Assembly (NCBI RefSeq): GCF_054482595.1
Contig: NZ_CM137008.1
Length of the DNA stretch: 64,000 nucleotides
Direction: 5' to 3' (one strand)
Positions 44,578-64,000 of the stretch are shown here, in pieces. The position numbers and the translations under genes are program-made. The notes beneath the pieces are model-generated. The model searched no databases. It was given only the letters and a program-made list of their open reading frames with translations, and was not told where the DNA came from. The stretch's first letter is position 1. Every line of letters starts with the position of its first letter.

Positions 44578-45225
44578 TTATTGTGCCCCGCGTTGTTGCA
44601 GGAACAGAATGGTGGCTGCCACGCGTGAGCGGACATTGAGTTTGCGCAGCAGATTGCGAATATGTACTTTTACTGTCTGCTCGGAAATATTCAACACCGA
44701 GGCAATCTGTTTATTTGACAGCCCCTGTGCCAGCTCGTGCAGAACATCCAGCTCGCGCTCCGTCAGCACGCTGAAGGGATCTTCTTCCGCGCCAAACATT
44801 TCACGTTCATGTAAGTACTGATTGACGCGTTCGCTAAAGACTTTGCTGCCTTTCGCTCCGGCACGAATCGCTTCCAGCAAAACTTCCGGGTCGCTGTCTT
44901 TCAACAGATAACCGTCTGCGCCTGCGTCTATCAGCGCAAAGACATCGCTGGAGGCATCTGATACGGTCAGGATAATAATTTGCGCGGTAACGCCATCCCT
45001 GCGCAAGGCATTGAGGGTATCCAGGCCACTCATACCTTTCATATTGAGATCCAGCAAGATCACGTCGATATCCAGTCTATTAGCCAGATCGATCGCGCTC
45101 GCGCCGTCGCCTGCTTCGGCGACCACTTCAAAGCCAGGATCAAGCTCCAGTAACTGACGAACACCGCGTCGCATAAGTGGATGATCATCCACAATCATCA
45201 CCTGAAAAGGCGTTGCTTCAGGCAT
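44578..45225 (-). CDS. narP: Nitrate/nitrite response regulator NarP (215 aa)
   Basis: MPEATPFQVMIVDDHPLMRRG receiver plus LuxR HTH; trimmed from 225-aa ORF. Confidence 0.95.
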   Translation of the reverse strand: MPEATPFQVMIVDDHPLMRRGVRQLLELDPGFEVVAEAGDGASAIDLANRLDIDVILLDLNMKGMSGLDTLNALRRDGVTAQIIILTVSDASSDVFALIDAGADGYLLKDSDPEVLLEAIRAGAKGSKVFSERVNQYLHEREMFGAEEDPFSVLTERELDVLHELAQGLSNKQIASVLNISEQTVKVHIRNLLRKLNVRSRVAATILFLQQRGAQ

Positions 45226-45544
45226 AGTAGTCTCCTGAGGTTTTATTAGAATCATTATGTTTGAGCGTAGCGTTGGTATCGCTACCAGGCGCGTGAATGT
45301 TACCCCATTTTATGTATGGACATGTAGTGAAAACTACAACCTTGTCGTTCGTTTTGGCATCATTTTCATTATAAAGACGGAATTTTGCATCAGCTTCTCA
45401 TCAAGAAAAACAACTAAAAAATCAATCACAATACTTGTGCATTTCTTTAAACAGTTTTTAAAAACTGATTCCGGGTATGGAGCTATGGGTATTTTCTGTA
45501 CCCAATGCTTTTAACAGCAATTAATTTCATAGGATGAAAGCTCA

Positions 45545-48197: not shown

Positions 48198-48228
48198 AAA
48201 AAAACCAACCGTAAGGGTTGGTTTTTTT
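48198..48228. terminator. Bidirectional hairpin (A-run/CCAACC-GTAAG-GGTTGG/T-run) between yejO and the tRNA-derived core
   Basis: Inverted repeat flanked by A7 and T7 runs. Confidence 0.65.
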
Positions 48229-48236
48229 GGGATTTT

Positions 48237-48285
48237 TGGTCGGCACGAGAGGATTTGAACCTCCGACCCCCGACACCCCATGACG
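48237..48285 (-). other. Prophage attachment core: 3'-terminal ~49 nt of tRNA-Pro (proL-type), not a complete tRNA
   Basis: Minus strand reads CGTCATGGGGTGTCGGGGGTCGGAGGTTCAAATCCTCTCGTGCCGACCA (anticodon-stem to CCA end) but the expected 5' half (CGGCACG acceptor arm) is absent; sequence diverges into AT-rich phage DNA. Confidence 0.8.
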
Positions 48286-48654: not shown

Positions 48655-50406
48655 TCATTCTAATGCCTTCTCAATGTTTGTATTTATTTCTGATAAACTA
48701 TTAATTACACCGTCAAATACAAAATCAAGAGCGTTACTATAACCAATTGCTAAAGTAGCTGAATCAAATCCTAGTTTTGCTAAATGCTCAATTGATTTGT
48801 TTACTGCTTCATGAGCTTCAGCATTTCTTAAATCATTATTTATAAAAAACGATGCCACTTTTTTATTTTGAGTTTTAAAATCTGCAAATTCTGTGGCGTG
48901 CTTAAGTACAGATGAGTCTTCATTCTGTTCAATAATTGGCTCGATAAGGTTAAGTAATGATTGAAGTAGTTTCAGAGTTTGGAATTTTTCGATGTCTGAT
49001 TTATTAACACCCATTGCAATTAATAATTTTTTTAAAGAGCCTGATTTAATCTTATTTAAAATCTCATTAATAGTCTTACATCTATTCAAAAAATCCGGTT
49101 CTTGCATGTCATTTGGCGCAACAAATGCTAGCTTCTGCAATACTGGATAGTTAGAGATTCCTTCTGATTCTAACTCTGTGCGATTAATTTCTAAAATGTC
49201 TGCATTGGATAAAGTAACACCAATACTTCTACCAAGTGCTACAAGATTATCGCTAAGTCTTGCTAGTTCTCTAGCGAATTTAAATGTTTTAGATACAATA
49301 TGTTCTCCGCTTAAATCATTTTCAGTGATTTGGTTTGGATCCTTAGCATAATCAAAAACATGATAAACCTCCTCTTCAGGAATTCCTCGATACAGCTCAT
49401 AAAACGGAATTCTGACTAAGTTTCTTCCAACCCTGATGCAATCCCTAAAGGACCATTGTCCACCGTAGCTTGGAGCAACCCTATAAGAATAGCCGTCATA
49501 AAATGGAATAGCATCATATGAAGAATCTTTTTCATATTTAGTAAGGAAAGAGTCATTAACCAAGACATATTCATTGTTTCTGATGTCTTTGGCTCTTGAA
49601 CTCGTCATAGGAGTATCATATCCCGGCCATATTAATTCATCTATATTTAATTTTTTACAAAGTTCAGGCTGAACAGATTGTACACTTCCCCATGCTTGCA
49701 ATAATATATTGTCCCCATTATCTACTATCTCAAAATCTATCCAAGGCAAATCAAACTTGAAATGTTTTGACCCAGACAATAAGTTAATTACTTCCGTCGT
49801 TCTTTGAATACGTGCTTCATAGTAAAAAACACGTACACCAACATAATTTCTCATCCAGAGGTATTTTCTTAGATAATCATTACGCATTGTCCATTTTACA
49901 TCTTTATTACTTCTAAAGTAATACTCGCTTGACACATCCCCTTGTGCGACTCCATAATCGGGCAAGCTTACCTCATCGAAAATGACTTTTTGCTCAGTGT
50001 CACCTATAAGTCTGGGTTTTAGACCAAGCATCATCCATACATCTTCAGCTAAAAAAAATGAAAAGTGAGAACTATCACCCCAAGAAGCTACAATATACTT
50101 ATAACCTGAAATTGATAAACTATAATCTCTTGCTCCGCCTTTAGACCTACAGTCAGGAGTCGAAAATGAAACTAAACCATTAGTAGACTCCTGGAGAACT
50201 TTGATATTATTGATATCTTCTTGTGGTACGGTAGCCATTGTCATATGAGCACACTCATGATTATCTTTAAAAAGATTTTTTTCGTATCTATGTGTGACAA
50301 TGACCTCTTTCTGTGGATTAGTAATATCCTCTATAGATAATAAATCTTTAAGACCTTGAGGGATCTGATCTACTGGTAAAGGTAATTGTGATATATAGTC
50401 AATCAT
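48655..50406 (-). CDS. Hypothetical 583-aa cargo protein (no TM, no recognised NTPase motif), C-terminal Rx4H (HEPN-like) motif; candidate defence/abortive-infection gene
   Basis: Long clean ORF, visibly AT-rich, own ~320-bp AT-rich upstream region, located between att core and int. Confidence 0.7.
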   Translation of the reverse strand: MIDYISQLPLPVDQIPQGLKDLLSIEDITNPQKEVIVTHRYEKNLFKDNHECAHMTMATVPQEDINNIKVLQESTNGLVSFSTPDCRSKGGARDYSLSISGYKYIVASWGDSSHFSFFLAEDVWMMLGLKPRLIGDTEQKVIFDEVSLPDYGVAQGDVSSEYYFRSNKDVKWTMRNDYLRKYLWMRNYVGVRVFYYEARIQRTTEVINLLSGSKHFKFDLPWIDFEIVDNGDNILLQAWGSVQSVQPELCKKLNIDELIWPGYDTPMTSSRAKDIRNNEYVLVNDSFLTKYEKDSSYDAIPFYDGYSYRVAPSYGGQWSFRDCIRVGRNLVRIPFYELYRGIPEEEVYHVFDYAKDPNQITENDLSGEHIVSKTFKFARELARLSDNLVALGRSIGVTLSNADILEINRTELESEGISNYPVLQKLAFVAPNDMQEPDFLNRCKTINEILNKIKSGSLKKLLIAMGVNKSDIEKFQTLKLLQSLLNLIEPIIEQNEDSSVLKHATEFADFKTQNKKVASFFINNDLRNAEAHEAVNKSIEHLAKLGFDSATLAIGYSNALDFVFDGVINSLSEINTNIEKALE

Positions 50407-50728
50407 TATAATTTATGCCTTCTATGCTCAGTATTAAATTAAATATTAAATCGAAGTCATCCCCTTGGCAACCTAAATCGTTTGCTGCTAGTACTTCAGT
50501 GTAAGATTAATTATGCAATAGTTTGCAATTGAAATATCTTAAGCTGTAGAAAAATCAATCATACTGATACCTTTTACTTAAGTTTCACTCCTAGGCATGA
50601 TGAACGCTTCCTCAAGATACAGTATTACGCTATGCCTGCAACTTTCACTTGTGGCATAGTAAACCTTTCAATTTAGGTTTAGCCCTGTATAGTAGTAATG
50701 CACGCTTCAAATCTGAGCTAATAAAATT

Positions 50729-51913
50729 TTAACTGGCTTTAATTTCTCCATGTGGTACGACAACCCAATCAATATGGTTTTGCGTATAAATCTTGGTTGA
50801 CTTGGAGTCGCTGTGCGCCATTCGTGCTTGCGGATCGATACCTTGCTGATCGAAAAGATACGCTGCTAATGCTCTAATTTCGTGAAAGGTTGGTCTTTCA
50901 TCTATCGGTAGATTGTCGCATAAACCTAGCTTGTCACGTGTGGCTGAAAACGACCGGCTCAAATAGTCCGGTGCAACTTGAGTAGGGTGTGAAACCTCTT
51001 TGCTGCGTTTAACCTGCCGTTCAGGGATCCTGTGAACGACAAACGGACTGGCCACATTATCTCGGCTATCATCAATTATTCGTTTCAACTCTTCACCAAT
51101 CGGTATTGCAACGTGTGATGCCTCTTTTTTTTGCACTTTTTGCCTGTGGATGTAAAGCGTCCCATATATGCCATTTTGTGGTTGTTCGAACCAGACACAT
51201 CCACATATACCGTCTTTAGGTTCGCGAATTGAGTAACGGATTCGCGATACTTCGAGTCGTGCATGTGTAGTCTGCAATGCTAGGTCCATTGCTGTTCTTA
51301 ACCATGGTGCAGCGGCCTGCCTGATAGCTATAAAATGCTCGAGTGACAGGCGCCGTCTTTTCTTCTCATCAGTCCTACGCATTTTTTTTCTGATGGCCGG
51401 GTTATCCAGCATTAGTGATTCATCGACCGCATAAGAGAACAACTTTTTAAGGAAGCTGACCTTTCTGTTCTGCACATTTGCGGATGCGCAGGCATGATAT
51501 TTATTGATGTAGGTATTAACGTGTTCAAGTGCAATATCGCATGCTGGAACATTTACGAAAAACGCTTTTACGCGTAGAGCGTCATTTTTCCAGTCATCTA
51601 AGGTGCTCTGGGAAGGACGTTCGTCTTCGATAATCCGGGTCATTATGTGATCAACATGTTCAGCAAATGGTTTTGCTTCTCCGATAACACCGCCAGATTC
51701 TCTAATAAGATTATCTACTGATGGAGATAATTCTGGTCGCATCCTCAGGTTGTACTCTCTGGCGATTGCAATGGCTATTGCCCTATCCTTACCTATATTT
51801 TTCTTCTTTCCGGTAATAAGTGTGAATTTATAAACACCTCGATCTTTATCAAAAATCAGATAATCAGGAAGATGTCTGTATTCTTTTTTACGTGGCCTTG
51901 CCGCCATGGTCAC
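50729..51913 (-). CDS. int: Phage integrase, tyrosine recombinase
   Basis: 394 aa; C-terminal catalytic region with HEIRALAAYL (HxxR) and STKIYTQ (Tyr); overlaps xis. Confidence 0.92.
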   Translation of the reverse strand: MTMAARPRKKEYRHLPDYLIFDKDRGVYKFTLITGKKKNIGKDRAIAIAIAREYNLRMRPELSPSVDNLIRESGGVIGEAKPFAEHVDHIMTRIIEDERPSQSTLDDWKNDALRVKAFFVNVPACDIALEHVNTYINKYHACASANVQNRKVSFLKKLFSYAVDESLMLDNPAIRKKMRRTDEKKRRRLSLEHFIAIRQAAAPWLRTAMDLALQTTHARLEVSRIRYSIREPKDGICGCVWFEQPQNGIYGTLYIHRQKVQKKEASHVAIPIGEELKRIIDDSRDNVASPFVVHRIPERQVKRSKEVSHPTQVAPDYLSRSFSATRDKLGLCDNLPIDERPTFHEIRALAAYLFDQQGIDPQARMAHSDSKSTKIYTQNHIDWVVVPHGEIKAS

Positions 51914-52119
51914 CCCTCATTTATTAACTTGCGAACAGCTTGACTAACCATTGAGTCGACTCCCCATTTTTCTGTTTCGCAGACAAAAACAGAACCGTCC
52001 ACGATGCGTCCCATGAGTAGACCGTTCTCGACCCAACGTTTTATCGTTCGGTTGTCAGGAATTGAGCCATTAGAGAATTCACGGCGTCCCCATTGGCTCG
52101 CTTTCATTAGTTTTGCCAT
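51910..52119 (-). CDS. xis: Excisionase (Xis-like)
   Basis: Small ORF overlapping int start by 4 nt; ...RTIKRWVENG... winged-helix excisionase motif; start at MAKLMK chosen (ORF-track start 52164 possible). Confidence 0.75.
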   Translation of the reverse strand: MAKLMKASQWGRREFSNGSIPDNRTIKRWVENGLLMGRIVDGSVFVCETEKWGVDSMVSQAVRKLINEG

Positions 52120-52180
52120 GGCTGTTTCTCCACTTAGCCCGCTGCACACGGGTAGTAATATCAAATTCCAGTCCTGATAA

Positions 52181-52396
52181 TTAATTTTGTTCTCTGGTTG
52201 CTACTTGTTTTATTGGCCTGATGCTGTCCAGGAGCAGACGGCGGCGCATGTTTGGCGCGCCCCAACGGTAACCAGTCTTTTTGTCGTAGGATTCACAACG
52301 TCCGACAACCCAGGAGGTTTCAGTGGAATGTAATTTCATCCGCTTTTCACCGTCTCGGGTGATAACAATTCCTGTATGAGTTTTTATCACGCTCAT
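52181..52396 (-). CDS. Hypothetical small phage protein (71 aa)
   Basis: ORF upstream of xis with RBS GGAGAATAAAAAATG; function unknown. Confidence 0.55.
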   Translation of the reverse strand: MSVIKTHTGIVITRDGEKRMKLHSTETSWVVGRCESYDKKTGYRWGAPNMRRRLLLDSIRPIKQVATREQN

Positions 52397-52920
52397 TTTT
52401 TATTCTCCGGTGCTTTCGGCATTACTGCCCAGTGGGTAATATTGACGTTTTCAAGGTCCCCGACCTGAAATGTCCACTGCCATTCTCCGGTTTCTTTTTG
52501 CCCCCAATGTGTACCAGAGAGAACGCCAGCCAATCAGCCAGCCTTCTCCATTAGCATCAAATAACAGAACACTTTCATGTCTGTTTTGTAAAAAGGACGG
52601 TACCAGCCGGAAGCAAGGGTACAAGCTGGTACCTCCAAGACTACACACAGCATAAAGTTGTGGTGCCGGGTGCCTCCCGGTGCCTGGCGAAGGTTGCACA
52701 CCAGGCGGGTGGGTATCCACAGAAGGTCGACTGTCAGCCTCAACCTTTACCCGCGTGCGCTGAGCCGCATTCACCACAACGCTAAGGATTCTCTCTGGTT
52801 GAAAATACTTAGCTGTTATGTGCCTGCTTTTAGCCACATCAGGCGAGGTGGACCTAGTTATTCCCCAACAACAAGGATTTGGTTATTATGTAACCCTCCC
52901 CAACAACGATAAGGATTTAT

Positions 52921-53010
52921 ATGGAACGATGTGTAGATAAGTATGAGGAGAGGCATGTGCCGTTAAGGCAAAAGCCTCCAGTTCCTCCAAAACCACCCAA
53001 GGAAAACTGA
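52921..53010 (+). CDS. Putative 29-aa proline-rich leader peptide (MERCVDKYEERHVPLRQKPPVPPKPPKEN)
   Basis: AGGA RBS 5 nt upstream of ATG; stop 7 nt before the 164-aa ORF start; see findings. Confidence 0.35.
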   Translation: MERCVDKYEERHVPLRQKPPVPPKPPKEN

Positions 53011-53017
53011 GACTAAT

Positions 53018-53512
53018 ATGACCAGAGACGATTATAAATTTTATATTCACTACTCTTATGTATTGGAGAAGATGAATTACACGTTGTTAACTCGTATTGA
53101 TAAATTAATAACGTTGATGTTAATCGTTCTCGGTTTTTCAGTTTTCGCCCCGTACAGTAATTTATTTATTTTCGGTTTGTTTGTTGCCGTACTTTCGGTT
53201 CTTCAGTTGGTCTATCAGTTCGGCCAGGAGGCTGGGATGTCTAAAGAACAAGCGAGGCATTACAAAAGACTGCTGATTGAGTCTGATACTCTTTCTGAAG
53301 ATCAGTTGCAAGCTAGGTATTTAAAAATCCAAGATACCGATAGTAATCCATGGAAATCACTTGAACGAGCGGCTTTCATTCGGGCCTGCATTTTTGCTGG
53401 TGTTCCAACTAAGTACGATCTAACAACCAAAGAAAAATTTATTGCTTGGTGTGCGGGAGATCTACCTCTAGAGAATGAACTAACGGATATTAATGATGAC
53501 CAACAAGCATAA
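53018..53512 (+). CDS. Small membrane protein with two N-terminal TM helices; SieB-like position (superinfection exclusion candidate)
   Basis: 164 aa, AT-rich, hydrophobic segments LITLMLIVLGFSVFAPY and LFIFGLFVAVLSVLQLVY; sits between early-left region and cI on opposite strand. Confidence 0.65.
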   Translation: MTRDDYKFYIHYSYVLEKMNYTLLTRIDKLITLMLIVLGFSVFAPYSNLFIFGLFVAVLSVLQLVYQFGQEAGMSKEQARHYKRLLIESDTLSEDQLQARYLKIQDTDSNPWKSLERAAFIRACIFAGVPTKYDLTTKEKFIAWCAGDLPLENELTDINDDQQA

Positions 53513-53567
53513 TCCAGTTCACGGACATGTACCTCCGAAGCCGAAACCACCGAAACCGAAGAAATGA
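53496..53567 (+). CDS. Putative 23-aa proline-rich micro-ORF (MTNKHNPVHGHVPPKPKPPKPKK)
   Basis: ATG overlapping the 3' end of the 164-aa ORF; see findings. Confidence 0.3.
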   Translation: MTNKHNPVHGHVPPKPKPPKPKK

Positions 53568-53586
53568 GACATAATAGGATTGGATA

Positions 53587-53655
53587 ATGAGTCGACCAAT
53601 AGAGCCTTTTCATATTCCACCTCGTCCCAGGCCACCAGATCCAGGCCCAAAGTGA
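53587..53655 (+). CDS. Putative 22-aa proline-rich micro-ORF (MSRPIEPFHIPPRPRPPDPGPK)
   Basis: AGGA RBS 7 nt upstream; followed by terminator hairpin. Confidence 0.3.
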   Translation: MSRPIEPFHIPPRPRPPDPGPK

Positions 53656-53678
53656 GGGTTACTGATTTTTAAAGAGCG

Positions 53679-53703
53679 AAGCGTCCGGTAGGGCGCTTTT
53701 TTG
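53679..53703 (+). terminator. Rho-independent terminator closing the membrane-protein/micro-ORF unit
   Basis: AAGCGTCC-GGTA-GGGCGCTT hairpin (one G-U pair) followed by TTTTTT. Confidence 0.6.
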
Positions 53704-53817
53704 TTGCTAACGAATCATCTTGGACTTCATATGCCCCAGGCGGCTACTTCGTGAGCGTCCTGCCTGTTTGTTGTTTCTCTTGGGTACATTATGTATCTCA
53801 AAGGTACATTGTCAAGC

Positions 53818-53842
53818 ATAAAAAAACCTGCCGAAGCAGGTT
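53818..53842 (-). terminator. Rho-independent terminator downstream of cI
   Basis: Minus strand AACCTGC-TTCG-GCAGGTT followed by U-run. Confidence 0.65.
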
Positions 53843-53854
53843 CATAAACATTGA

Positions 53855-54529
53855 TTAGGCTTTGATTTTGTATCTTCTTGGTTTTCCTGAGAAAATCACA
53901 GTACCAATTATAGAGCAATTACCGTTGATCTTAATGTAAGGCTCAGGCCAGTTTGGGTTTAACGCTTTGAGATAACGCTGTGTCCCATCTTCTATCAACC
54001 TTTTGAAGGTGGTTTCACCTGTATCGTGCATCAATGCAATAACGTCGTCACCGTGGCAGGCAGGTACTTCAGGATCGACAAAAATCATGTCTCCCGGGCG
54101 GTACTCATCAATCATTGAATCACCTATCACCCGCAAGATATAAGTCATTTCCCCACAGGGTACAGGGCAGGGATACGTTTCTGCTGTGCTCAAATCAACC
54201 TCAGAATATCCAACTTCTTTCCATGCTCCGGCCTGTACCCATGATATGACAGGGACTAATGTGATTTGTTTATTAGTGATTGAAACATCAGGTTTTTTTG
54301 TGATGTTCGTTGTCTGGTGTTCTTGATCGAGCCATCCGACAGGCAGGTCGAAACATTTTTCGATGTGTCGTGCCATGCTGTCACCGATATTTTTAGTAGC
54401 ACCATCTCCCATAAACCTGCTGGTTTGGGTTGGCTCGCGATCAATCATAGTGGCAAAGGAAGAATTCCCGCCAACACCATCTCTCAGTTTTCTGGCGTTA
54501 GACCGCCGGATGTCATGGATTGTTTTCAT
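53855..54529 (-). CDS. Phage repressor CI-like (HTH plus S24 LexA-type autopeptidase domain)
   Basis: 224 aa; C-terminal ...VIGDSMIDEYRPGDMIFVDPE... S24 Ser/Lys peptidase signature; divergent from cro-like gene. Confidence 0.88.
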   Translation of the reverse strand: MKTIHDIRRSNARKLRDGVGGNSSFATMIDREPTQTSRFMGDGATKNIGDSMARHIEKCFDLPVGWLDQEHQTTNITKKPDVSITNKQITLVPVISWVQAGAWKEVGYSEVDLSTAETYPCPVPCGEMTYILRVIGDSMIDEYRPGDMIFVDPEVPACHGDDVIALMHDTGETTFKRLIEDGTQRYLKALNPNWPEPYIKINGNCSIIGTVIFSGKPRRYKIKA

Positions 54530-54544
54530 AACGAAATTAAAACC

Positions 54545-54565
54545 CTTGTACCGTTAAGGTACAAG
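54545..54565. promoter_or_regulatory. Operator-like perfect palindrome CTTGTACC-GTTAA-GGTACAAG in cI/cro intergenic
   Basis: Read directly; GGTAC(A) half-sites recur near 54607, 53776, 53800 and 52617. Confidence 0.6.
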
Positions 54566-54569
54566 TATC

Positions 54570-54597
54570 TTGAAGGTTCATTTTAATCATGTAATAT
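54570..54597 (+). promoter_or_regulatory. Candidate pR-like sigma70 promoter (TTGAAG-N16-TAATAT) for cro-like gene
   Basis: -35/-10 hexamers adjacent to operator palindrome, GGAGG RBS downstream. Confidence 0.5.
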
Positions 54598-54619
54598 GTA
54601 TACCGGAGGTACATATTGT

Positions 54620-54820
54620 ATGAAAGCGTATTGGGACTCTTTAACCAAAGAACAGCAGGGCGAGTTGGCCGGAAAAGTTGGCTCAACACCTGGCTACTTA
54701 CGGCTGGTTTTCAATGGCTATAAAAAAGCCAGTTTTGTGCTGGCTAAAAAACTTGAGCAATGCACGTCAGGTGCAATTACGAAATCTGACTTAAGACCGG
54801 ATATCTATCCGAAAGATTAG
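54620..54820 (+). CDS. Cro/YdaS-like small HTH regulator
   Basis: 66 aa from MKAYWDSL; position and size; ORF-track start 54596 lies upstream of predicted -10. Confidence 0.75.
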   Translation: MKAYWDSLTKEQQGELAGKVGSTPGYLRLVFNGYKKASFVLAKKLEQCTSGAITKSDLRPDIYPKD

Positions 54821-54851
54821 CAGAACACTTTCAATTTTTAACCACAGAACG

Positions 54852-55415
54852 ATGAGGCTAATCGTGGGTAAGCATCACTGGAAAATAGAAAAACAGCCTG
54901 AGTGGTACATGAAAGCTGTCAGAAAAACTATCGCGGCGTTGCCGGGTGGTTACGCTGAAGCCGCTGACTGGCTGGATGTAACAGAGAACGCATTATTTAA
55001 CCGCCTTCGTGCCGATGGCGATCAGATTTTCCCGCTGGGATGGGCAATGATTTTGCAACGTGCTGGTGGAACTCACTTCATTGCTGATGCTGTGGCGCAG
55101 TCTGCAAATGGCGTCTTTGTGTCTCTTCCTGACGTCGAGGATGTGGACAACGCCGATATTAACCAGCGTCTGCTGGAAGTCATTGAACAGATTGGCAGTT
55201 ATTCAAAACAGATTCGTTCAGCAATCGAAGACGGTGTAGTGGAACCGCATGAGAAGACAGCAATTAATGACGAGCTGTACCTCTCAATTTCGAAGCTGCA
55301 GGAGCATGCAGCACTGGTCTACAAAATTTTTTGCATTTCAGAAAGTAATGACGCCCGCGAGTGTGCAGCTCCGGGCGCCGTGGCGTGTCGTGACTGTGGA
55401 GAAACTAACGCATGA
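54852..55415 (+). CDS. Hypothetical early protein in CII/YdaT position (possibly CP76-type CII-like regulator)
   Basis: 187 aa ORF directly after cro-like gene; family assignment tentative. Confidence 0.6.
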
Positions 55416-55750
55416 ACAGTTTAACAACACATTACCGTCGCTCGCAACTGATTGCACTTCCTGTACCGGGTGGAAAAGCGAAGGTGGAGTATTGCTATGC
55501 AGTGAATGTACCAGGTGACAGGGAAATTGTAACCCACAGCTTTGCAGAGTGGGCTGTGGGCGATTTCAACCGGCAAAAGGAGACAGTCCTTTGCGACAAG
55601 TTAACCGCTGGTTCAAAGATCACTACGGAGTGCCCGTCAGAGTCATTCGTTGGGAGCCGGAAACACAACGGGTTATCTACCTCCGCGAAGGCTATGAGCA
55701 TGAGTGCTTCAGCCCGCTCGAACAGTTTCGTCGTAAATTCAGGGAAATAG
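55412..55750 (+). CDS. Hypothetical protein; overlaps alternative frame 55549..55770 (possible frameshift or overlapping genes)
   Basis: ATGA-coupled to upstream gene; second frame is ATGA-coupled to downstream replication gene. Confidence 0.4.
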
Positions 55751-55759
55751 AGGTCGGTC

Positions 55760-56701
55760 ATGAGCACTAAATTAACCGGCTATGTATGGGATGGTTGCGC
55801 TGCGTCAGGCATGAAGTTATCCAGCGTGGCAATTATGGCCCGCCTGGCTGATTTCAGTAATGACGAAGGTGTGTGCTGGCCATCAATTGAAACCATTGCC
55901 CGCCAGATTGGCGCGGGGATGAGCACCGTCAGAACGGCTATCGCACGGCTGGAAGCAGAAGGCTGGTTAACTCGTAAGGCGCGTCGCCAGGGTAACCGCA
56001 ATGCGTCGAATGTTTATCAGCTTAACGTTGCGAAGCTTCAGGCAGCGGCATTTTCTCAACTGTCAGATTCTGACCCGTCAAAATCTGACGCATCAAAATC
56101 TGACCCGTCAAAATTTGATGCGTCGAAATCTGGCAAAAAAGCGGGTTTTCACCCGTCAGAATCTGGCGGGGATCCGTCAGTAAAATCAAAACATGATCCG
56201 TCAGATAAAAAAAACTCTCGTCCGGACGCTTCGCAACCGGACACGCAGATGGATGAACAGGATTTTTTAACTCGCCATCCTGATGCGGTTGTATTCAGCC
56301 CTAAAAAGCGCCAGTGGGGGACGCAGGATGATTTGACCTGCGCACAGTGGCTCTGGAAAAAAATCATCGCCCTGTACGAGCAGGCTGCCGAATGTGACGG
56401 CGAGGTGGTTCGTCCCAAAGAACCGAACTGGACAGCCTGGGCAAACGAAATTCGCCTGATGTGTGTGCAGGATGGTCGTACTCACAAACAAATCTGCGAG
56501 ATGTACAGCCGCGTCAGCCGCGATCCGTTCTGGTGCCGTAACGTGCTCAGCCCGTCGAAGCTGCGGGAAAAATGGGATGAGCTTTCCCTGCGCTTATCGC
56601 CGTCCGTAAGCACGTACACCGAAAAACGCGAAGACCCGTACTTCAAATCCAGTTACGACAACGTGGACTACAGCCAGATCCCGGCAGGATTCAGGGGGTG
56701 A
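55760..56701 (+). CDS. Phage replication initiator (O-like, N-terminal winged-helix DNA-binding domain) containing iteron array
   Basis: 313 aa; N-terminal HTH-like region; internal SDSDPSKSDASKSDPSKFDASKSG repeats encoded by DNA direct repeats. Confidence 0.7.
   Translation: MSTKLTGYVWDGCAASGMKLSSVAIMARLADFSNDEGVCWPSIETIARQIGAGMSTVRTAIARLEAEGWLTRKARRQGNRNASNVYQLNVAKLQAAAFSQLSDSDPSKSDASKSDPSKFDASKSGKKAGFHPSESGGDPSVKSKHDPSDKKNSRPDASQPDTQMDEQDFLTRHPDAVVFSPKKRQWGTQDDLTCAQWLWKKIIALYEQAAECDGEVVRPKEPNWTAWANEIRLMCVQDGRTHKQICEMYSRVSRDPFWCRNVLSPSKLREKWDELSLRLSPSVSTYTEKREDPYFKSSYDNVDYSQIPAGFRG
56062..56215. repeat. Iteron-like direct repeats (~15-nt CGTCA(A/G)AATCTGAC units, about 8 copies): candidate phage replication origin
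   Basis: Tandem near-identical units read directly inside replication gene, as in lambda O/ori. Confidence 0.6.
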
Positions 56702-57192
56702 TCATGAGTCTTTTGAATGACGTTCAGAAATTCATTGAAGCCCATCCGGGGTGTACTTCCGGAGACATTGCGGATGCTTTTGCTGGTTACTCACGGCAGC
56801 GCGTTCTGCAGTCAGCAAGCAAGTTACGTCAGAGTGGGCGTGTGGCTCACCGTTGTGAAGGGGATACACGCAGACATTTCCCGCGCCTGACTGAGAGAGC
56901 GCAGGAACTGGAACCACAACCAGTTCGAGAAACCAGATCTGTGCGCAATTTCTATGTCGGCACTAACGATCCCCGGGTGATTTTGTGCCTGACCCGCCAG
57001 GCTGAAAAACTGGAGTCCAGGGGCTTATACCGTCGTGCTGCAACGGTGTGGATGGCGGCATTCCGTGAAAGCCACTCCCAGCCAGAACGAAACAATTTTC
57101 TGGCGCGTCGTGAGCAGTGTTTACGGAAAAGCAGCAAGCGCGCTGTATCGAGTGATGAGTGGTATCTGTCAGGGAATTACGTGGGGGCGTAA
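56698..57192 (+). CDS. Hypothetical phage protein (tentative PerC/ANR-like C-terminal motif)
   Basis: 164 aa ORF coupled to neighbours; motif LESRGLYRRAATVWMAAF; no Walker motif so not a DnaC-type loader. Confidence 0.55.
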   Translation: MIMSLLNDVQKFIEAHPGCTSGDIADAFAGYSRQRVLQSASKLRQSGRVAHRCEGDTRRHFPRLTERAQELEPQPVRETRSVRNFYVGTNDPRVILCLTRQAEKLESRGLYRRAATVWMAAFRESHSQPERNNFLARREQCLRKSSKRAVSSDEWYLSGNYVGA

Positions 57193-57518
57193 TGACGACG
57201 TTAACTCAATGCCAGCAGCAGGTGCTGGATATGCTGATTTCTTATCAGAAAGAGCGTGGCTTTCCGCCAACCAATCAGGAGGTGGCAACCATGCTGGGAT
57301 ACCGTTCAGTGAATGCAGCGGTAGAGCATCTTCGCGCACTGGAGAAAAAAGGCGTCATCACGATAAAGCGTGGCGTGGCCCGGGGGATAACGCTTCATAC
57401 CGCGGTGAAGGACGACGACAGCGAGGCGGTCGGGATTATCCGCGCACTGCTTGCCGGTGAGGAAAACGCAAGGCTGCGTGCAACCCACTGGTTACATGAG
57501 AGGGGCCTGAAAGTATGA
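57192..57518 (+). CDS. LexA N-terminal DNA-binding domain protein (no peptidase domain)
   Basis: QQQVLDMLISYQKERGFPPTNQEVATMLGYRSVNAAVEHLRALEKKGVI parallels LexA N-terminal winged helix (QQEVFDLI...GMPPTRAEIA...[21 protein letters not shown]). Confidence 0.75.
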   Translation: MTTLTQCQQQVLDMLISYQKERGFPPTNQEVATMLGYRSVNAAVEHLRALEKKGVITIKRGVARGITLHTAVKDDDSEAVGIIRALLAGEENARLRATHWLHERGLKV

Positions 57519-57904
57519 AGCTGATCCTGCCTTTTCCGCCCAGCGTGAACACGTACTGGCGACACCCCAACAAAGGGGCGTTTGCTGGTAAGAGCCTGAT
57601 AAGCGCGGCGGGGCGAAAATTCCAGAGCGCGGCGTGTGCAGCAATAGTTGAGCAGTTACGTCGTCTGCCGAAACCAACGTCGGCACCTGCTTCAGTGGAG
57701 ATCGTGTTGTTTCCTCCGGATAACCGGATCCGCGATCTGGACAACTATAACAAGGCGCTGTTTGACGCCCTGACCCACGCGGGTGTGTGGGAAGACGACA
57801 GCCAGGTGAAAAGAATGTTGGTGGAGTGGGGACCGGTTATCCCGGAAGGGAAGGTCGAGATCACTATCAGTAAGTACGAGAAAACGGCGGGTGCAGCCGC
57901 CTGA
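57515..57904 (+). CDS. rusA: Holliday junction resolvase RusA
   Basis: 129 aa; LPFPPSVNTYWRH...DLDNYNKALFDALT motif typical of RusA. Confidence 0.88.
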   Translation: MKLILPFPPSVNTYWRHPNKGAFAGKSLISAAGRKFQSAACAAIVEQLRRLPKPTSAPASVEIVLFPPDNRIRDLDNYNKALFDALTHAGVWEDDSQVKRMLVEWGPVIPEGKVEITISKYEKTAGAAA

Positions 57905-57923
57905 TCAAGAGGAGAAACGAAGT

Positions 57924-58721
57924 ATGAATAATCTGATGGTCATTGATGGTATTGAAGTTCGTCGTGATGCTTATGGGCGTTACAGCCTGAACGATCTGCA
58001 CAGGGCTGCCGGTTCTCTGGATAAGCATAAGCCTGCATTCTGGCTCCGCAATGAGCAAACTGAACGTTTAATAAGCGAGTTGCAGATTTGCAACTCGGTC
58101 AATATAGAGCCAGTTAACGTTATTCGCGGCGGAAATAATCAGGGGACGTATGTCTGTAAGGAACTGGTGTATGCCTATGCAATGTGGATCAGCCCGTCAT
58201 TCCATCTGAAGGTGATCCGTACTTTCGACATGGTAACCAGCGCACCGGAAAAATTATCCGGACAGGCTGCTGACAAGATGCAGGCTGGAGTGATTCTGCT
58301 GGACTTTATGCGTCGGGAGTTAAACCTGTCTAACTCATCTGTGCTTGGGGCCTGTCAAAAACTCCAGGAGGCTGTTGGCTTACCGAATCTGGCACCGCGC
58401 TATGCCATTGATGCTCCTGCTGATGCACACGATGGCTCAAGTCGCCCCACGCTGTCGCTGAGTGCACTGCTGAAGCAGTATGGTATCCGCCTGACGGCTA
58501 ATCAGGCATATCACCAGATGGTGAAGCTGGGGATCGTTGAACAACGCGAACGATACAGCCGTACCGCGATTAACAACATCAAAAAATTCTGGTCGCTGAC
58601 AGCGAAAGGCTGCATGTTCGGCAAGAACATCACCAGTCCCGCAAATCCGCGCGAGACGCAGCCGCATTTCTTCGAATCCCGATTCCCTGAGCTGTTAAAG
58701 CTGCTCGATACCGTTCATTGA
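57924..58721 (+). CDS. KilA-N domain protein (antirepressor-like)
   Basis: MNNLMVIDGIEVRRDAYGRYSLNDLHRAAG...KPAFWLRNEQT N-terminal KilA-N signature. Confidence 0.75.
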   Translation: MNNLMVIDGIEVRRDAYGRYSLNDLHRAAGSLDKHKPAFWLRNEQTERLISELQICNSVNIEPVNVIRGGNNQGTYVCKELVYAYAMWISPSFHLKVIRTFDMVTSAPEKLSGQAADKMQAGVILLDFMRRELNLSNSSVLGACQKLQEAVGLPNLAPRYAIDAPADAHDGSSRPTLSLSALLKQYGIRLTANQAYHQMVKLGIVEQRERYSRTAINNIKKFWSLTAKGCMFGKNITSPANPRETQPHFFESRFPELLKLLDTVH

Positions 58722-58722
58722 G

Positions 58723-59718
58723 GTGACCGTGAGAGCACTACTGACCCCTGAAATTGCCCCGCGTATGGGGATCGTATTGTTCAGACCAGGTTCAGAACTG
58801 ATGCCCCTGTTTATGCAGGGGCGTGTCCTGCTGGAGCCTGAGCCGGAACGTTATTCATCTTTCGCCAGTGGTGCCGTTCCGGCAGCATCACAACCGCTGG
58901 CGGATGATCCTGCCGTTCGGGCCGTGTTCCGCAATGAGGCAGTGATCCGTCGTGCTGGTGGCGTGGAATGTCTTGAAAGCTGGTTACTTCGTGAAAAAGG
59001 CTGTCAGTGGCCTCACTCCGACTGGCACAGCGAAAACATGACCACAACGCGCCATGCGCCGGGCGCAATCCGTCTGTGCTGGCACTGCGATAACCAGTTG
59101 CGTGACCAGTTCACGGAACGGCTGGAATCAATGGCAACGGATAACTGTGCCCGCTGGGTGTTATCTGTTGTGCGCCGTGATCTCGGTTTTGATGATAGTC
59201 ACGTTGTGACAATGCCGGAACTGTGCTGGTGGCTGGTTCGTAATGACCTGGCGGATGCCTTACCGGAAAGTGCAGCCCGTAAGGCACTGAGATTACCGAA
59301 GCCTGTTGTGCCGTCTGTCACCCGGGAAAGTGACCTTGTTCCTTCGGTTCCTGCCACCAGCATCATCCAGGATAAGGCGAAAAAGGTGCTGGCGCTGAAA
59401 GTGGATCCGGAGTCACCGGAGTCTTTTATGTTACGCCCAAAACGTCGCCGCTGGGTTAATGAAAAGTACACGCGCTGGGTTAAGACACAGCCGTGTGCAT
59501 GTTGTGGAAAGCCCGCTGATGATCCCCACCACCTGATAGGCCATGGTCAGGGTGGAATGGGGACAAAAGCGCATGACCTCTTTGTGTTGCCTTTGTGCAG
59601 AAAGCATCACGACGAGCTGCATGCGGATACCGTGGCATTTGAAGAGATGTATGGCTCCCAGCTGGAGCTGATATTTCGTTTTATCGATCGTGCGCTGGCA
59701 ATTGGTGTGCTGGCCTGA
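58723..59718 (+). CDS. DUF968-family phage protein (YdfU-like)
   Basis: 331 aa; C-terminal Cys/His-rich CACCGKPADDPHHLIGHGQGGMGTKAHDLFVLPLCRKHHDELH. Confidence 0.7.
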   Translation: MTVRALLTPEIAPRMGIVLFRPGSELMPLFMQGRVLLEPEPERYSSFASGAVPAASQPLADDPAVRAVFRNEAVIRRAGGVECLESWLLREKGCQWPHSDWHSENMTTTRHAPGAIRLCWHCDNQLRDQFTERLESMATDNCARWVLSVVRRDLGFDDSHVVTMPELCWWLVRNDLADALPESAARKALRLPKPVVPSVTRESDLVPSVPATSIIQDKAKKVLALKVDPESPESFMLRPKRRRWVNEKYTRWVKTQPCACCGKPADDPHHLIGHGQGGMGTKAHDLFVLPLCRKHHDELHADTVAFEEMYGSQLELIFRFIDRALAIGVLA

Positions 59719-59720
59719 TT

Positions 59721-60083
59721 TTGTGGAGAAAGTTGATGCGTGATATGTATGAAGTAATGGATCGTTGGGGAGCTTGGGCTGCTTCAGACAATAGCGGAGT
59801 GGACTGGCAACCGGTAGCCGCTGGCTTCAAGGGACTTTTACCTCATGGCAAAAAGTCCCGGATTCAGTGTGATGATGACGAAGGCATTATGATAGACAGT
59901 TGTGTGGCTCGGTTGCGTAAATATAGGCCTGAAGAATATGAGCTAATCATTGCTCACTTTGTTATCGGTATCTCATTACGCACTATTGCGAAGAAGAGAA
60001 AATGCTCTGATGGGACTATAAGAAAAAAGTTGCAAGCTGCATTGGGATTTATTGATGCAGTTATATATATAATACATGGGTAA
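59721..60083 (+). CDS. Late-gene antiterminator Q (QuuD-type)
   Basis: 120 aa; DRWGAWAA...AAGFKGLL...KSR.QCDDD...CSDG... closely parallels QuuD-family Q proteins. Confidence 0.85.
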   Translation: MWRKLMRDMYEVMDRWGAWAASDNSGVDWQPVAAGFKGLLPHGKKSRIQCDDDEGIMIDSCVARLRKYRPEEYELIIAHFVIGISLRTIAKKRKCSDGTIRKKLQAALGFIDAVIYIIHG

Positions 60084-60090
60084 TTTATTA

Positions 60091-60109
60091 GACGGCCATA
60101 TTGGCCGTC
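60091..60109. terminator. Palindromic hairpin GACGGCC-ATATT-GGCCGTC between convergent Q and the antisense cassette
   Basis: Perfect 7-bp inverted repeat overlapping the cassette stop codon; no strong U-run. Confidence 0.4.
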
Positions 60110-61295
60110 AGCTAAATAAATATGTAATAGCATAAGGTGTAAGTAAAAAGTAGAATCTAAATGTAAGATATAAGCCACATAAAACTATAATTCCTAATGA
60201 GGCAAAAACAACTTTCTGAACAAGCAATCTTGTGGTTAAACTATCAAATGTATCCTTTATATCTTCGTAAATAGCCTTGAAGTTATATTCTGCTTGTTGT
60301 TTTTTATGATTTAACTCATCATTTATTGCTGTTAAAGTTTGCCATTGATTAAATAGAACAAATATAATCATAATAGTGAAGAACAATGCACCCAACACTA
60401 CAGCTGTGTTTATTAATGCTTGACTATCCCAACCATTAGCCTGCTTCATTTGAGTCGCAACGATAATTGTTGCGACGGGGATACCTAATATCTGATTTTG
60501 TATGTCACTGAATACTTTATGTATTTTCCCCATCTCTTCTATTTTGGCTACTCGTAACTGATCTAGTATTTTCTCGTAAGAAAAACCAGAAACGAATACT
60601 TTGTATCCTTTTTGATAACTTTCATAAAGTTGTCCTAAATCCCTTAACATGAAGGAAAAAGAGGTTTCTTTAGTTTTAGATTCACATGATGATTTTATAC
60701 TACTTGCTAAAATAGTAAGTTTTTGATCTTTATGCGTATCTTCTGCAAAGTTTGCGATCAAATTATGAATCAGATCTCCATTAACATTCATAAGATCATC
60801 GCTAGAATAATTTACTGGAATTTTTAGTACGTTGGATTCGACGAATACCAATTCAAAATTTGTTTCATCTAAATAAGCAGAACAATCTTTGAATAAAGTA
60901 ATTAAGCTCAAAACATCTCTGTACTTGGATATAATAGCAGGCGACTTTTTATCCCTGTTGTGATAATTAAGTTCGATTATAAAGAAGTTACTGGCTTCCT
61001 TTATCCTATTTTTAGGATTTTTTAAATACTCATTAAAAGAGAAATGTAGCTGCCCCAATCGTAATTTGGGGGGGGTTATATGTAAGGTTATAGTTTGGCC
61101 TAACTCAATGTTGCCAGATTCAAGGGTGATGCCAAAATCATGGGGATTCTCTGTGATATCGTTGATGATGTCACAGAGCTCCTCGTTTGAAAGAATGAGT
61201 GATGCTTCAGATAGGGTACCTGCAAATGTAGCGGCCTTGTAAATAGTCACTAAGTCTTTGAAGGTTCTCTGGTTTTTACTGCTCATCCTCTTCAC
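60108..61295 (-). CDS. Hypothetical 395-aa protein with two C-terminal TM helices; downstream gene of antisense two-gene moron
   Basis: Clean AT-rich ORF; hydrophobic segments ALINTAVVLGALFFTIMIIFVLF and VVFASLGIIVLCGLYLTFRFYFLL; overlaps upstream gene by 20 nt. Confidence 0.75.
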   Translation of the reverse strand: MKRMSSKNQRTFKDLVTIYKAATFAGTLSEASLILSNEELCDIINDITENPHDFGITLESGNIELGQTITLHITPPKLRLGQLHFSFNEYLKNPKNRIKEASNFFIIELNYHNRDKKSPAIISKYRDVLSLITLFKDCSAYLDETNFELVFVESNVLKIPVNYSSDDLMNVNGDLIHNLIANFAEDTHKDQKLTILASSIKSSCESKTKETSFSFMLRDLGQLYESYQKGYKVFVSGFSYEKILDQLRVAKIEEMGKIHKVFSDIQNQILGIPVATIIVATQMKQANGWDSQALINTAVVLGALFFTIMIIFVLFNQWQTLTAINDELNHKKQQAEYNFKAIYEDIKDTFDSLTTRLLVQKVVFASLGIIVLCGLYLTFRFYFLLTPYAITYLFS

Positions 61296-62310
61296 CTAAT
61301 TCTGATAAAATCTCTGATCTTAGCGTATCCGGAATCTCGGTAAGTATCAATTTATCGTTTTCTGAATCATAAAGAACGCTGCCATCATGCAAGGCCGCAC
61401 GCTCGAATTTCAGAGACCAATGTTTGGACTTTCCTTTGAAACTAACAAGCCCACGTATAACGTTGCCATCAGGCACGAACCCATCAGAGAACTCCAGATC
61501 GTCATTGGTTAACTTTTCAACTAACAACTCAGGAGCAGTTGGCCATATCTCGTTTGCAAAAATTTGAGTGTCGAAAGTTTCACCAGAACGATTTAAATTT
61601 TTTAATTTTTCATGAGCCTTATTTAGGAACTCTTCACGTGCCTCTGGTTCAAAACCTCTTTCAGTAGCAAATTCTAAAAGTGCATTCCGTAATTTTGTTG
61701 TTTCTTGTTTGGCAATTAGAATATCGTTGCAACCTAAAAACTTTTTGAAATAACCTGCTACTGAATTTTGCCCCTTTAGAAAGCTAATATATCTCTCTTT
61801 GCCATTCTGGCGCCCAGTTAAGTCAATTCGTCCCGCTACTCGAAGTTTAGCAATGTCTAGATATTCACTTTCTTGAATTTCAAAATCGTGGACTGAAGAG
61901 CCAACTGCTGAAGTTAGGATTGCAACCATCAAATAATGATTTCCATTTACCTCATTATGGGCAATTATTACATAACCACCAGTAGACATTGATTCATCAT
62001 CGGCTCTGGCTTTTAAATGATTGATCATTCGGATACTAGTATCATAAAAACTATGTGTTTTATTTACGAAATAATCATCAACGATATTACCCATAGGGTA
62101 ACTATCGCGGTCATCTTCAAATTTCCCATATCCTTTACCTGCTCTCCCAGAGTACCTTTCAGTAAGTGCGTTAGAGAGGTCTTTTGATGCTTGCTGAACA
62201 GGTTTTTCTGAAGGACAAGGAATAATGGTGGCTAACCCCTGTTGTTCCTTGTTCATAATGTGAACAATAAACTTATGAGTGATATTAGTGGGGGTCGCTG
62301 ATGCAGTCAT
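61276..62310 (-). CDS. Divergent NdpA/YejK-family (NA37) nucleoid-associated-like protein, prophage-encoded
   Basis: 344 aa; blocks GGYVIIAHNEV..YLMVAIL, GRIDLTGRQNGKERYISFLKGQ..VAGYFKKFLG parallel host YejK ([51 protein letters not shown]); RBS AGGA upstream. Confidence 0.75.
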   Translation of the reverse strand: MTASATPTNITHKFIVHIMNKEQQGLATIIPCPSEKPVQQASKDLSNALTERYSGRAGKGYGKFEDDRDSYPMGNIVDDYFVNKTHSFYDTSIRMINHLKARADDESMSTGGYVIIAHNEVNGNHYLMVAILTSAVGSSVHDFEIQESEYLDIAKLRVAGRIDLTGRQNGKERYISFLKGQNSVAGYFKKFLGCNDILIAKQETTKLRNALLEFATERGFEPEAREEFLNKAHEKLKNLNRSGETFDTQIFANEIWPTAPELLVEKLTNDDLEFSDGFVPDGNVIRGLVSFKGKSKHWSLKFERAALHDGSVLYDSENDKLILTEIPDTLRSEILSELGEEDEQ

Positions 62311-62426
62311 AACAACATCCTTTTAATGGTTTTGAACAATTGGTGTTGATAATACTTCAAAAAATACTAATGCGTACGCAAAAAATACAGTACTCTGTTA
62401 AGAGTGGTTACTTCGCCACACAGCTT

Positions 62427-62456
62427 AAACCCGCCGTTGAGCGGGTTTTGTCGTTT
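62427..62456 (+). terminator. tR'-like Rho-independent terminator upstream of lysis genes
   Basis: AACCCGC-CGTTGA-GCGGGTT hairpin followed by TTGTCGTTT. Confidence 0.6.
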
Positions 62457-62600
62457 CTGGGGCTGGGGATTCGTTGGTCCTGGTCTATTCCGCAGTTATC
62501 CATTGGTTCGGCTTCTTTGACGTTTCCGCTTCTAATTTGCTGTACATGATGTTCCCTCAATTTGCACCTGCTGTATCAGCGAGGTGAGAGATAACTACAA

Positions 62601-62927
62601 ATGCCTCATAACCCAAATACCTGGCTGGAGTTGGTCCAGAGCTGGTGGCGTGGAGACACACCACTGGGCGCAGTGATTATGTCGATCGTTATGGCTGGCT
62701 TGCGCATTGCCTATTTTGGCGGTGGTGGTGGCTGGAAGCGAAAAACGCTTGAGATTTTACTCTGTGGCGCTCTGACGCTGACATTTGCATCCGCGCTTGA
62801 GTATGTCGGATGGCCTAAATCACTATCTGTTGCCATTGGTGGTGGGGTGGGGCTGATCGGTGTCGATGCTATTCGTGGGGCTGCAATGCGAGTAATCGGT
62901 AACAAGTTTGGTGGCTCTAAGGAGTAA
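62601..62927 (+). CDS. Holin (class I, S-like)
   Basis: 108 aa, three hydrophobic segments, Gly-rich, immediately upstream of endolysin. Confidence 0.8.
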   Translation: MPHNPNTWLELVQSWWRGDTPLGAVIMSIVMAGLRIAYFGGGGGWKRKTLEILLCGALTLTFASALEYVGWPKSLSVAIGGGVGLIGVDAIRGAAMRVIGNKFGGSKE

Positions 62928-62930
62928 TTT

Positions 62931-63407
62931 ATGCAGGTACTAAATTCCCAGCGTAAAGCTTTTCTCGATATGTTGGCGTGGTCAGAAGGAACGGATAACG
63001 GGCGACAGCCAACCCGCAATCACGGCTACGACGTTATTGTAGGTGGTGAGCTATTCACGGATTACTCCGATCATCCTCGCAAACTTGTCACGCTAAACCC
63101 GCAACTTAAATCAACCGCAGCTGGACGTTACCAGCTTCTTTCCCGTTGGTGGGATGCCTACCGCAAGCAGCTTGGCCTGAAAGACTTCTCTCCGAAAAAC
63201 CAGGACGCTGTTGCACTGCAGCAGATTAAGGAGCGTGGCGCTTTACCGATGATTGATCGCGGTGATATCCGTCAGGCTATCGACCGTTGCAGCAATATCT
63301 GGGCTTCACTGCCGGGCGCTGGTTATGGCCAGTTCGAGCATAAGGCTGACAGCCTGATTGCAAAATTCAAAGAAGCAGGCGGAACGGTCAGAGAGATTGA
63401 GGTATGA
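62931..63407 (+). CDS. R: Endolysin R (lambda-type lytic transglycosylase)
   Basis: 158 aa near-identical to lambda R as recalled ([48 protein letters not shown]...). Confidence 0.95.
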
Positions 63408-63865
63408 GCAGATTAACCGCGATTATCTCCGCTCTGCTCATCTGCATCATCGTCTGCATGTCATTGGCTGTTAATCATTATCGTGATAACGCCATTACCT
63501 ACAAAGCCCAGCGCGACAAAAATGCCAGAGAACTGAAGCTGGCGAACGCGGCAATTACTGACATGCAGGTGCGCCAACGTGATGTCGCTGCGCTCGATGC
63601 AAAATACACGAAGGAGTTAGCTGATGCGAAAGCTGAAAATGATGCTCTGCGTGATGATGTTGCCGCTGGTCGTCGTCGGTTGCACATCAAAGCAGTCTGT
63701 CAGTCAGTGCGTGAAGCCACCACCGCCTCCGGCATGGATAATGCAGCCTCCCCCCGACTGGCAGACACCGCTGAACGGGATTATTTCACTCTCAGAGAGA
63801 GGCTGATCACTATGCAAAAACAACTGGAAGGAACCCAGAAGTATATTAATGAGCAGTGCAGATAG
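63404..63865 (+). CDS. Rz: i-spanin Rz
   Basis: 153 aa near-identical to lambda Rz; N-terminal TM. Confidence 0.95.
63624..63806 (+). CDS. Rz1: o-spanin Rz1 (embedded in Rz, +1 frame)
   Basis: 60 aa lipoprotein [22 protein letters not shown]... with PPPPP tract, nested in Rz. Confidence 0.9.
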
Positions 63866-64000
63866 AGCTGCCCATATCGATGGGCAACTCATGCAATTAT
63901 TGTGAGCAATACACCCGCGCTTCCAGCGGAGTATAAATGCCTAAAGTAATAAAACCGAGCAATCCATTTACGAATGTTTGCTGGGTTTCTGTTTTAACAA

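Follow-up and report, generated by a model that had tools for sequence, protein, structure and literature searches.

The lysis genes at positions 62601-63865 of the window, by which we mean the whole 64,000-nucleotide stretch of DNA that was analysed (RefSeq assembly GCF_054482595.1, contig NZ_CM137008.1), very probably form the late lysis cassette of a temperate phage of the SfII/SfIV/SfV type in E. coli, assembled from modules that assort within the prophage pool. The first module is an SfII-type holin gene with the 5' end of the endolysin gene R; the second, made up of the 3' part of R together with Rz, Rz1 and iss, is of the kind that lambda and DLP12-like prophages carry. The cassette is an ordinary phage cell-lysis set, and its partial likeness to lambda is a case of long-known module shuffling: the exchange of modules that makes lambdoid phages mosaic is textbook knowledge. 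The genomes of the SfII group have already been described as mosaic lambdoid genomes (PMC3851460).

The prophage that carries the cassette is a lambdoid myovirus of the SfII/SfIV/SfV type, with the gene order of lambdoid phages and a contractile tail, and not a lambda-like siphovirus. In the early region, Shigella phages SfIV and SfII share about 96% identity with it; over 70-91% of the 19-kb structural region, the identity to SfII, SfI, SfIV and SfV is 97%. The annotated virion genes include those for an HK97-type head, a sheath, a tube, a Mu-like baseplate and a DNA circularization protein. At the left end lies a 67-bp attachment repeat, a copy of the 3' part of tRNA-Pro (48219-48285), which is 97% identical to a region at the far end that overlaps the intact tRNA-Pro gene (L001, 42756-42822). 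The integrase (50729-51913, minus strand) is a distant relative of lambda Int (24% identity, E 9e-15); its PF09003 arm-binding domain scores 26.7 bits (cut-off 22), and its match to PF00589 is weak, with 21.2 bits under a cut-off of 27.1. The repressor (53855-54529, minus strand) is a CI-type, ymfK-like protein of the LexA family (PF00717, E 1.5e-26) that shares 35% identity with lambda cI in the C-terminal domain only. The late antiterminator Q (59721-60083, plus strand) belongs to PF06530 (E 1.9e-44), whereas lambda Q belongs to PF03589. The preliminary description, which assigned Q, the repressor and the integrase to other lambdoid types than that of lambda, was correct on all three. A hypothetical open reading frame of 583 codons (48655-50406, minus strand), for which PADLOC (2023) gave no match, lies where cargo is typically found, with the integrase gene on one side and the left attachment repeat on the other.

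Positions 50400 to 64000 of the window are present in the same order, and with 100.0% identity, in the complete chromosome of strain 50EVA. The chromosomal backbone of the window (18839-48255) is 96.5-98.4% identical to that of 50EVA, so that the two E. coli chromosomes compared differ by 1.6-3.5% in backbone DNA. Because the prophage is fully identical from 50400 although the backbone is not, these values suggest that it spread recently and horizontally between divergent strains. At the same tRNA-Pro repeat, 50EVA carries a 19-kb element (L009, 29105-48229) that is absent from the window and that encodes two integrases, a relaxase and an 'ABC-three component system'.

Just 5' of the late genes lies a leader (62360-62455, plus strand), a block of about 90 nt that is conserved in SfII, mEp460 and DLP12-like prophages and is always found downstream of a reverse-strand insert after Q. 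A terminator scan places an intrinsic-terminator hairpin with a T run at its end (hairpin 62427-62448). The leader probably represents the short late-promoter transcript and the terminator on which Q would act. When 59700-64000 was scanned for consensus sigma-70 promoters, the interval 62311-62600 yielded none, only the terminator hairpin; reading of the late-leader region by eye revealed no convincing -35/-10 pair, and an Rfam scan of 59700-64000 with E values up to 1 matched nothing; we infer a late promoter here because the leader is conserved.

The insert between Q and the leader consists of two overlapping genes on the minus strand (60108-62310). One (61276-62310) encodes a YejK/NA37-like nucleoid-associated protein of 344 aa (PF04245, E 8e-69) that is 27% identical to the host YejK, and the other (60108-61295) a protein of 395 aa with C-terminal membrane helices according to a hydropathy scan. 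Type II PANGU anti-phage systems combine a nucleoid-protein sensor with a transmembrane effector (bioRxiv 10.64898/2026.04.06.716658), and the pair, which matches them in architecture, is likely to be a type II PANGU-like defence pair. A PADLOC (2023) scan gave no match for the pair. In SfII the corresponding place is taken by SfII_49 and SfII_50, neither of which is homologous to the NA37 pair.

The first gene of the cassette (62601-62927, plus strand) encodes a class I holin of 108 aa, an SfII-type allele of the lambda S family. It matches PF05106 (E 5.7e-25, 88.1 bits, cut-off 23.8; Pfam family search), the same model that lambda S matches, as well as the NCBIfam equivalog TIGR01594, 'phage holin, lambda family' (121.3 bits, cut-off 55.05). 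Its initial designation as a non-lambda holin is wrong for the family; in sequence it is a divergent allele, with just 24% identity to lambda S (25/104 residues, E 8e-07; BLASTP) and 23% in the pairwise matrix. In that matrix, the SfII holin is 98% identical to it in amino acids and 94% in nucleotides. Three hydrophobic segments (residues 20-41, 49-69 and 74-91) appear in a hydropathy scan, which uses a simple scale and is not a topology predictor, and the protein has a charged C-terminal tail, RVIGNKFGGSKE.

The Met-Lys-Met dual-start antiholin motif is absent from the holin, as judged from the sequence of the gene and its upstream DNA. There is a single ATG start, which an in-frame TAA precedes by 9 nt; no further in-frame ATG occurs before codon 27, which lies within the first helix. 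The dual start (Met-Lys-Met; S107/S105) is a trait of lambda S itself and not of the entire holin family. The control of lysis timing by the prophage holin may differ from that of lambda, and an antiholin, if present, would not be produced in the lambda way, since the gene has one start and lacks the dual-start motif. The holins of SfI, SfII, SfIV and SfV are likewise without a dual start, and their timing control has been called unknown (PMC3851460, the SfIV genome paper).

The endolysin gene R (62931-63407, plus strand) encodes 158 aa, of which 149 are identical to lambda R (94.3%, E 3e-116, BLASTP; 89.5% in nucleotides). No Pfam model matches R, which is true of lambda R itself, and no NCBIfam model matches R, Rz, Rz1 or Iss; R was therefore assigned through a PDB sequence search, in which the lambda lysozyme structures 1AM7 (E 3.9e-101) and 3D3D (E 4.4e-99) were matched. 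In the BLASTP alignment a glutamate at residue 19 aligns, within a conserved context, with Glu19 of lambda R, the catalytic residue of that enzyme. R is a lytic transglycosylase of the lambda lysozyme type, its chemistry being predicted. The RefSeq names given to near-identical copies of R are inconsistent and include 'glycoside hydrolase family 24', 'family 104' and plain 'glycoside hydrolase family protein'.

The two spanin subunits follow. Rz (63404-63865, plus strand; PF03245, E 3e-53, 179.8 bits) is the inner-membrane subunit of 153 aa, with a membrane anchor in the form of an N-terminal hydrophobic segment within residues 1-27 (hydropathy scan). It shares 147/153 residues with lambda Rz (96.1%, BLASTP), and its DNA is 97.0% identical, a level that holds outside the Rz1 overlap too. 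Rz1 (63624-63806, plus strand; PF06085, E 3e-20, 72 bits), the outer-membrane lipoprotein subunit of 60 aa, is wholly embedded in Rz with an offset of 220 nt, which puts it in the +1 frame relative to Rz, and is 96.7% identical to lambda Rz1 (58/60 residues, BLASTP; 98.4% in nucleotides). Aligned with lambda Rz1, it has an intact lipobox (VVGC, with Cys20), Cys29 and proline run, while Cys99 and Cys152 are conserved in Rz; C99 and C152 of Rz and C29 of Rz1 are presumably the periplasmic cysteines that form intermolecular disulfides. In the alignments and hydropathy scans, the functional residues and the topology of the lysis proteins are intact. The original observation that R, Rz and Rz1 are nearly identical to their lambda counterparts (94.3, 96.1 and 96.7% in amino acids) is thereby confirmed.

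By homology to lambda, RNA polymerase modified by Q would pass the terminator hairpin (about 62427-62448), the holin with its three helices would build up in the inner membrane until it forms holes, the R transglycosylase would then reach and cut the murein, and the Rz/Rz1 spanin complex would finally disrupt the outer membrane. Carried beside the cassette, iss would be a lipoprotein gene expressed in the lysogen, like bor in lambda.

For comparison with lambda we used NC_001416 as the reference and, for the prophage, the sequence of its 100%-identical counterpart in E. coli 50EVA. The whole prophage, of about 38.6-39 kb, has only one long DNA segment in common with lambda (blastn). It measures about 1.3 kb, extends from position 62949 to window-equivalent 64244 or so (lambda 45511-46809) and is 92.7% identical; beyond it there are just two trivial matches (77 nt and 34 nt). 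Within 62949-63865 the identity to lambda is 94.0% (megablast), so the low nucleotide identity across R and Rz that would have spoken against the proposed mosaicism was not seen, and the comparison of the entire prophage upheld the picture of lambda-like R, Rz and Rz1 genes in an otherwise non-lambda prophage. A tblastn search with 64 lambda proteins gave close matches solely to R, Rz, Rz1 and Bor and distant ones to Int (24%), the C-terminal domain of cI (35%), O (31%) and, weakly, Tfa; the lambda Q, N, head and tail proteins, apart from the weak Tfa match, found no tblastn match in the prophage. The prophage does not belong to the genus Lambdavirus, as it has no genome-wide nucleotide similarity to lambda.

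The left edge of the shared DNA, at 62949, corresponds to lambda 45511, directly after the stop codon of lambda S, and the right edge lies about 55 nt beyond the start of bor, so that the segment runs past the window end into iss. At both edges identity steps within a few bases from about 40%, as between unrelated sequences, to 80-100%. The iss gene, a homologue of bor, occupies window-equivalent positions 63897-64190 on the minus strand; the window end cuts it, and the last 104 nt of the gene (63897-64000) lie inside. Iss matches PF06291 (Lambda_Bor, E 1.6e-30) and is 91.8% identical to lambda Bor in amino acids. In 50EVA, where the region is 100% identical, the gene is annotated as 'increased serum survival lipoprotein Iss'. 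It adjoins Rz downstream on the opposite strand, as bor does in lambda. Johnson et al. (2008) are said to have derived iss from bor. Copies of iss on ColV-type plasmids retain adjacent remnants of Rz and Rz1 (about 90% identity), which shows that the Rz-iss block travels as a unit. That iss/bor lies next to Rz in both prophages and plasmids has been well documented; as regards serum survival, the chromosomal iss of one avian pathogenic strain could not replace the allele on the plasmid (PMC4313913).

The DNA shared with lambda falls into two parts. The first (62949-63128), an older-diverged allele of R, is 83.0% identical to lambda, with 31 differences in the 182 nt of 62949-63130; the second (63129-64000, continuing to window-equivalent 64244, just past the start of iss) is about 96.7% identical. 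A maximum chi-square analysis places a breakpoint within R at 63129, where the divergence from lambda falls from 17.2% on the left to 3.3% on the right, and none of 2000 permutations was as extreme. At the informative sites of R, the first 80 nt favour SfII over lambda by 18:5 and the last 77 nt favour lambda by 27:1, and at most informative sites in 62949-63128 the window agrees with SfII. Between 63011 and 63130 there is a mixed zone in which some sites match neither phage, implying that the true parental alleles lie outside the sampled sequences. Judged from these sites, R is chimeric, with an SfII-like 5' end and lambda-like 3' two-thirds, and SfII-type and lambda/DLP12-type blocks would have been joined by homologous recombination within this conserved gene, near 63010-63170. 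The join had been placed between the holin gene and R; that location is not sustained, as SfII natively pairs these two genes, with an R of the same type next to the same holin (98% in amino acids), and the crossover falls inside R, near 63129.

The joints between modules were examined by a sliding-window comparison with seven relatives, together with a pairwise matrix. SfII matches the window from 62346 to 63415 at 90.8%, and its next similarity is at its HNH gene, at 64715. Over the late leader and the 5' part of the holin gene (62426-62700), the DNA identity to SfII reaches 98-100%. The Rz/Rz1 spanins of SfII are, in contrast, unrelated to those of the prophage (Rz 23% in amino acids), and by blastn the iss region has no counterpart in SfII DNA. 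The DLP12-like EC0880B and PhiR29_1 present a different combination: their Rz and iss are 97.8% identical to those described here, the similarity beginning exactly at the Rz start (63404), whereas their RrrD lysozyme is unrelated to R (22% in amino acids), as is their holin (71 aa, pinholin-size, 12%). Rz-Rz1-iss in phages 2G7b, ev207 and PhiR11_1 is 98.1% identical and thus nearer than that of lambda. The R type itself is common to lambda, SfII, mEp460, 666R9 and MS 85-1 (83-91% in nucleotides), with the prophage R equally near mEp460 (91%) and lambda (90%).

Module combinations are incongruent among SfII, the DLP12-like prophages, mEp460 and lambda, and our comparison shows three modules, namely leader with holin, R, and Rz-Rz1-iss, assorting independently. 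Against an SfII-like background, the foreign block most likely consists of the 3' part of R with Rz, Rz1 and iss, the holin being native. Elsewhere in PhiR29_1 (L003), the early region is 96.8% identical to window positions 52400-60100, next to a different lysis cassette and lambda-like packaging (Nu1); the same early module is therefore found in a lambda-like virion, PhiR29_1, and in a contractile-tail prophage.

The arrangement is frequent. Counting as a copy any collinear match to 80% or more of the 2.4-kb region, we found it in 190 of 5426 complete E. coli genomes. In TUM9868, STS73-1-E and MLI107, prophages with the same layout reach 99.2% identity for the right block, as against 95.7% for the left. 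The holin, R and Rz genes are also carried by the isolated phages vB_EcoS-666R9 and mEp460, and strain MS 85-1 adds iss. By these counts the arrangement is an established and widespread variant, apparently old enough to have reached some 190 genomes and to have accumulated some divergence.

A bolder reading is that R is a recurrent homologous-recombination 'linker' for Rz-Rz1-iss and, as a separate matter, that the single-start holin represents an undescribed form of lysis timing. We consider this reading possible but doubtful. If true, the R linker would pass Rz-Rz1-iss among lambda-like siphoviruses, SfII-like myoviruses and ColV-type plasmids, and with that block a virulence-associated lipoprotein gene, iss.

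It is very unlikely that a recent recombination placed R, Rz and Rz1 from lambda, or from a near-identical relative, onto a non-lambda holin. Such an event would fit the high protein identity to lambda and the abrupt left edge of homology at 62949, directly after the lambda S stop codon, but the shared segment differs from lambda by 7.3% overall (3.3-17% along its length, one portion reaching 17%) against 1.6-3.5% for the strain backbones. Nearer alleles are present in other phages (98.1%) and prophages (99.2%), SfII pairs the same holin type with the same R type, and the layout occurs in about 190 genomes. Of the recent modular recombination first proposed for this region, the mosaicism is real; a recent exchange with lambda is contradicted by the divergence of 3.3-17% and by the closer copies elsewhere. 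Lambda is, on these distances, one member of the pool of alleles from which the block would have come, and not the donor.

Vertical descent, in which R, Rz and Rz1 evolved slowly from a lambdoid ancestor with no exchange while the rest diverged beyond recognition, is extremely unlikely. Purifying selection on the protein would be expected to leave the kind of pattern seen in the 5' third of R, where the codon differences to lambda are mainly synonymous (25, against 7 non-synonymous), and the overlap of Rz and Rz1 constrains 183 nt in two frames. Nevertheless, Rz is 97% identical in nucleotides even outside that overlap, identity jumps from about 40% to 80-100% at both edges of the shared DNA, and vertical descent cannot yield the incongruent modules of SfII, the DLP12-like prophages, mEp460 and lambda. 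There is a negligible chance that the join arose through misassembly or chimera formation in the source sequence, a generic concern that arises because related lysis DNA is repeated in E. coli genomes (median 2, maximum 11 copies per genome), given that positions 50400-64000 recur with 100.0% identity and collinearity in the complete 50EVA chromosome and the layout is found in many independent complete genomes and in phages vB_EcoS-666R9 and mEp460.

Assembly from assorting prophage modules, the reading we prefer, has little importance beyond correct annotation. The 'lambda-like' lysis genes belong to an allele pool common to E. coli prophages, crossovers can fall within a conserved gene and not just at gene borders, and iss rides with the spanin genes into phages of another morphotype. 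In genome scanning, likeness to a textbook phage is not the same as recent exchange with it.

Among known systems, the cassette is already known in kind and nothing in it departs from known kinds. The SfII group differs from the prophage in that the latter is integrated at tRNA-Pro and has other genes between Q and the holin than SfII. The DLP12-type prophages and phages (essD-rrrD-rzpD-bor/iss), such as EC0880B, PhiR29_1, 2G7b and ev207, have a homologous late leader and terminator (74-86%) and, as in the prophage, a reverse-strand insert between Q and the holin; their virion genes, however, are lambda-like. Compared with iss of ColV-type plasmids, the allele in the prophage is chromosomal. 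In lambda, the Q type, the late-promoter region and the rest of the genome are unrelated to the prophage at the DNA level, and S overlaps R, whereas the prophage holin gene does not. The S-R-Rz/Rz1-bor region of lambda (45186-46752) nevertheless has the same gene order and the same four protein families as the cassette, with R, Rz, Rz1 and Bor 92-97% identical in amino acids and the DNA collinear and free of gaps from codon 7 of R, through Rz and Rz1, over most of bor/iss.
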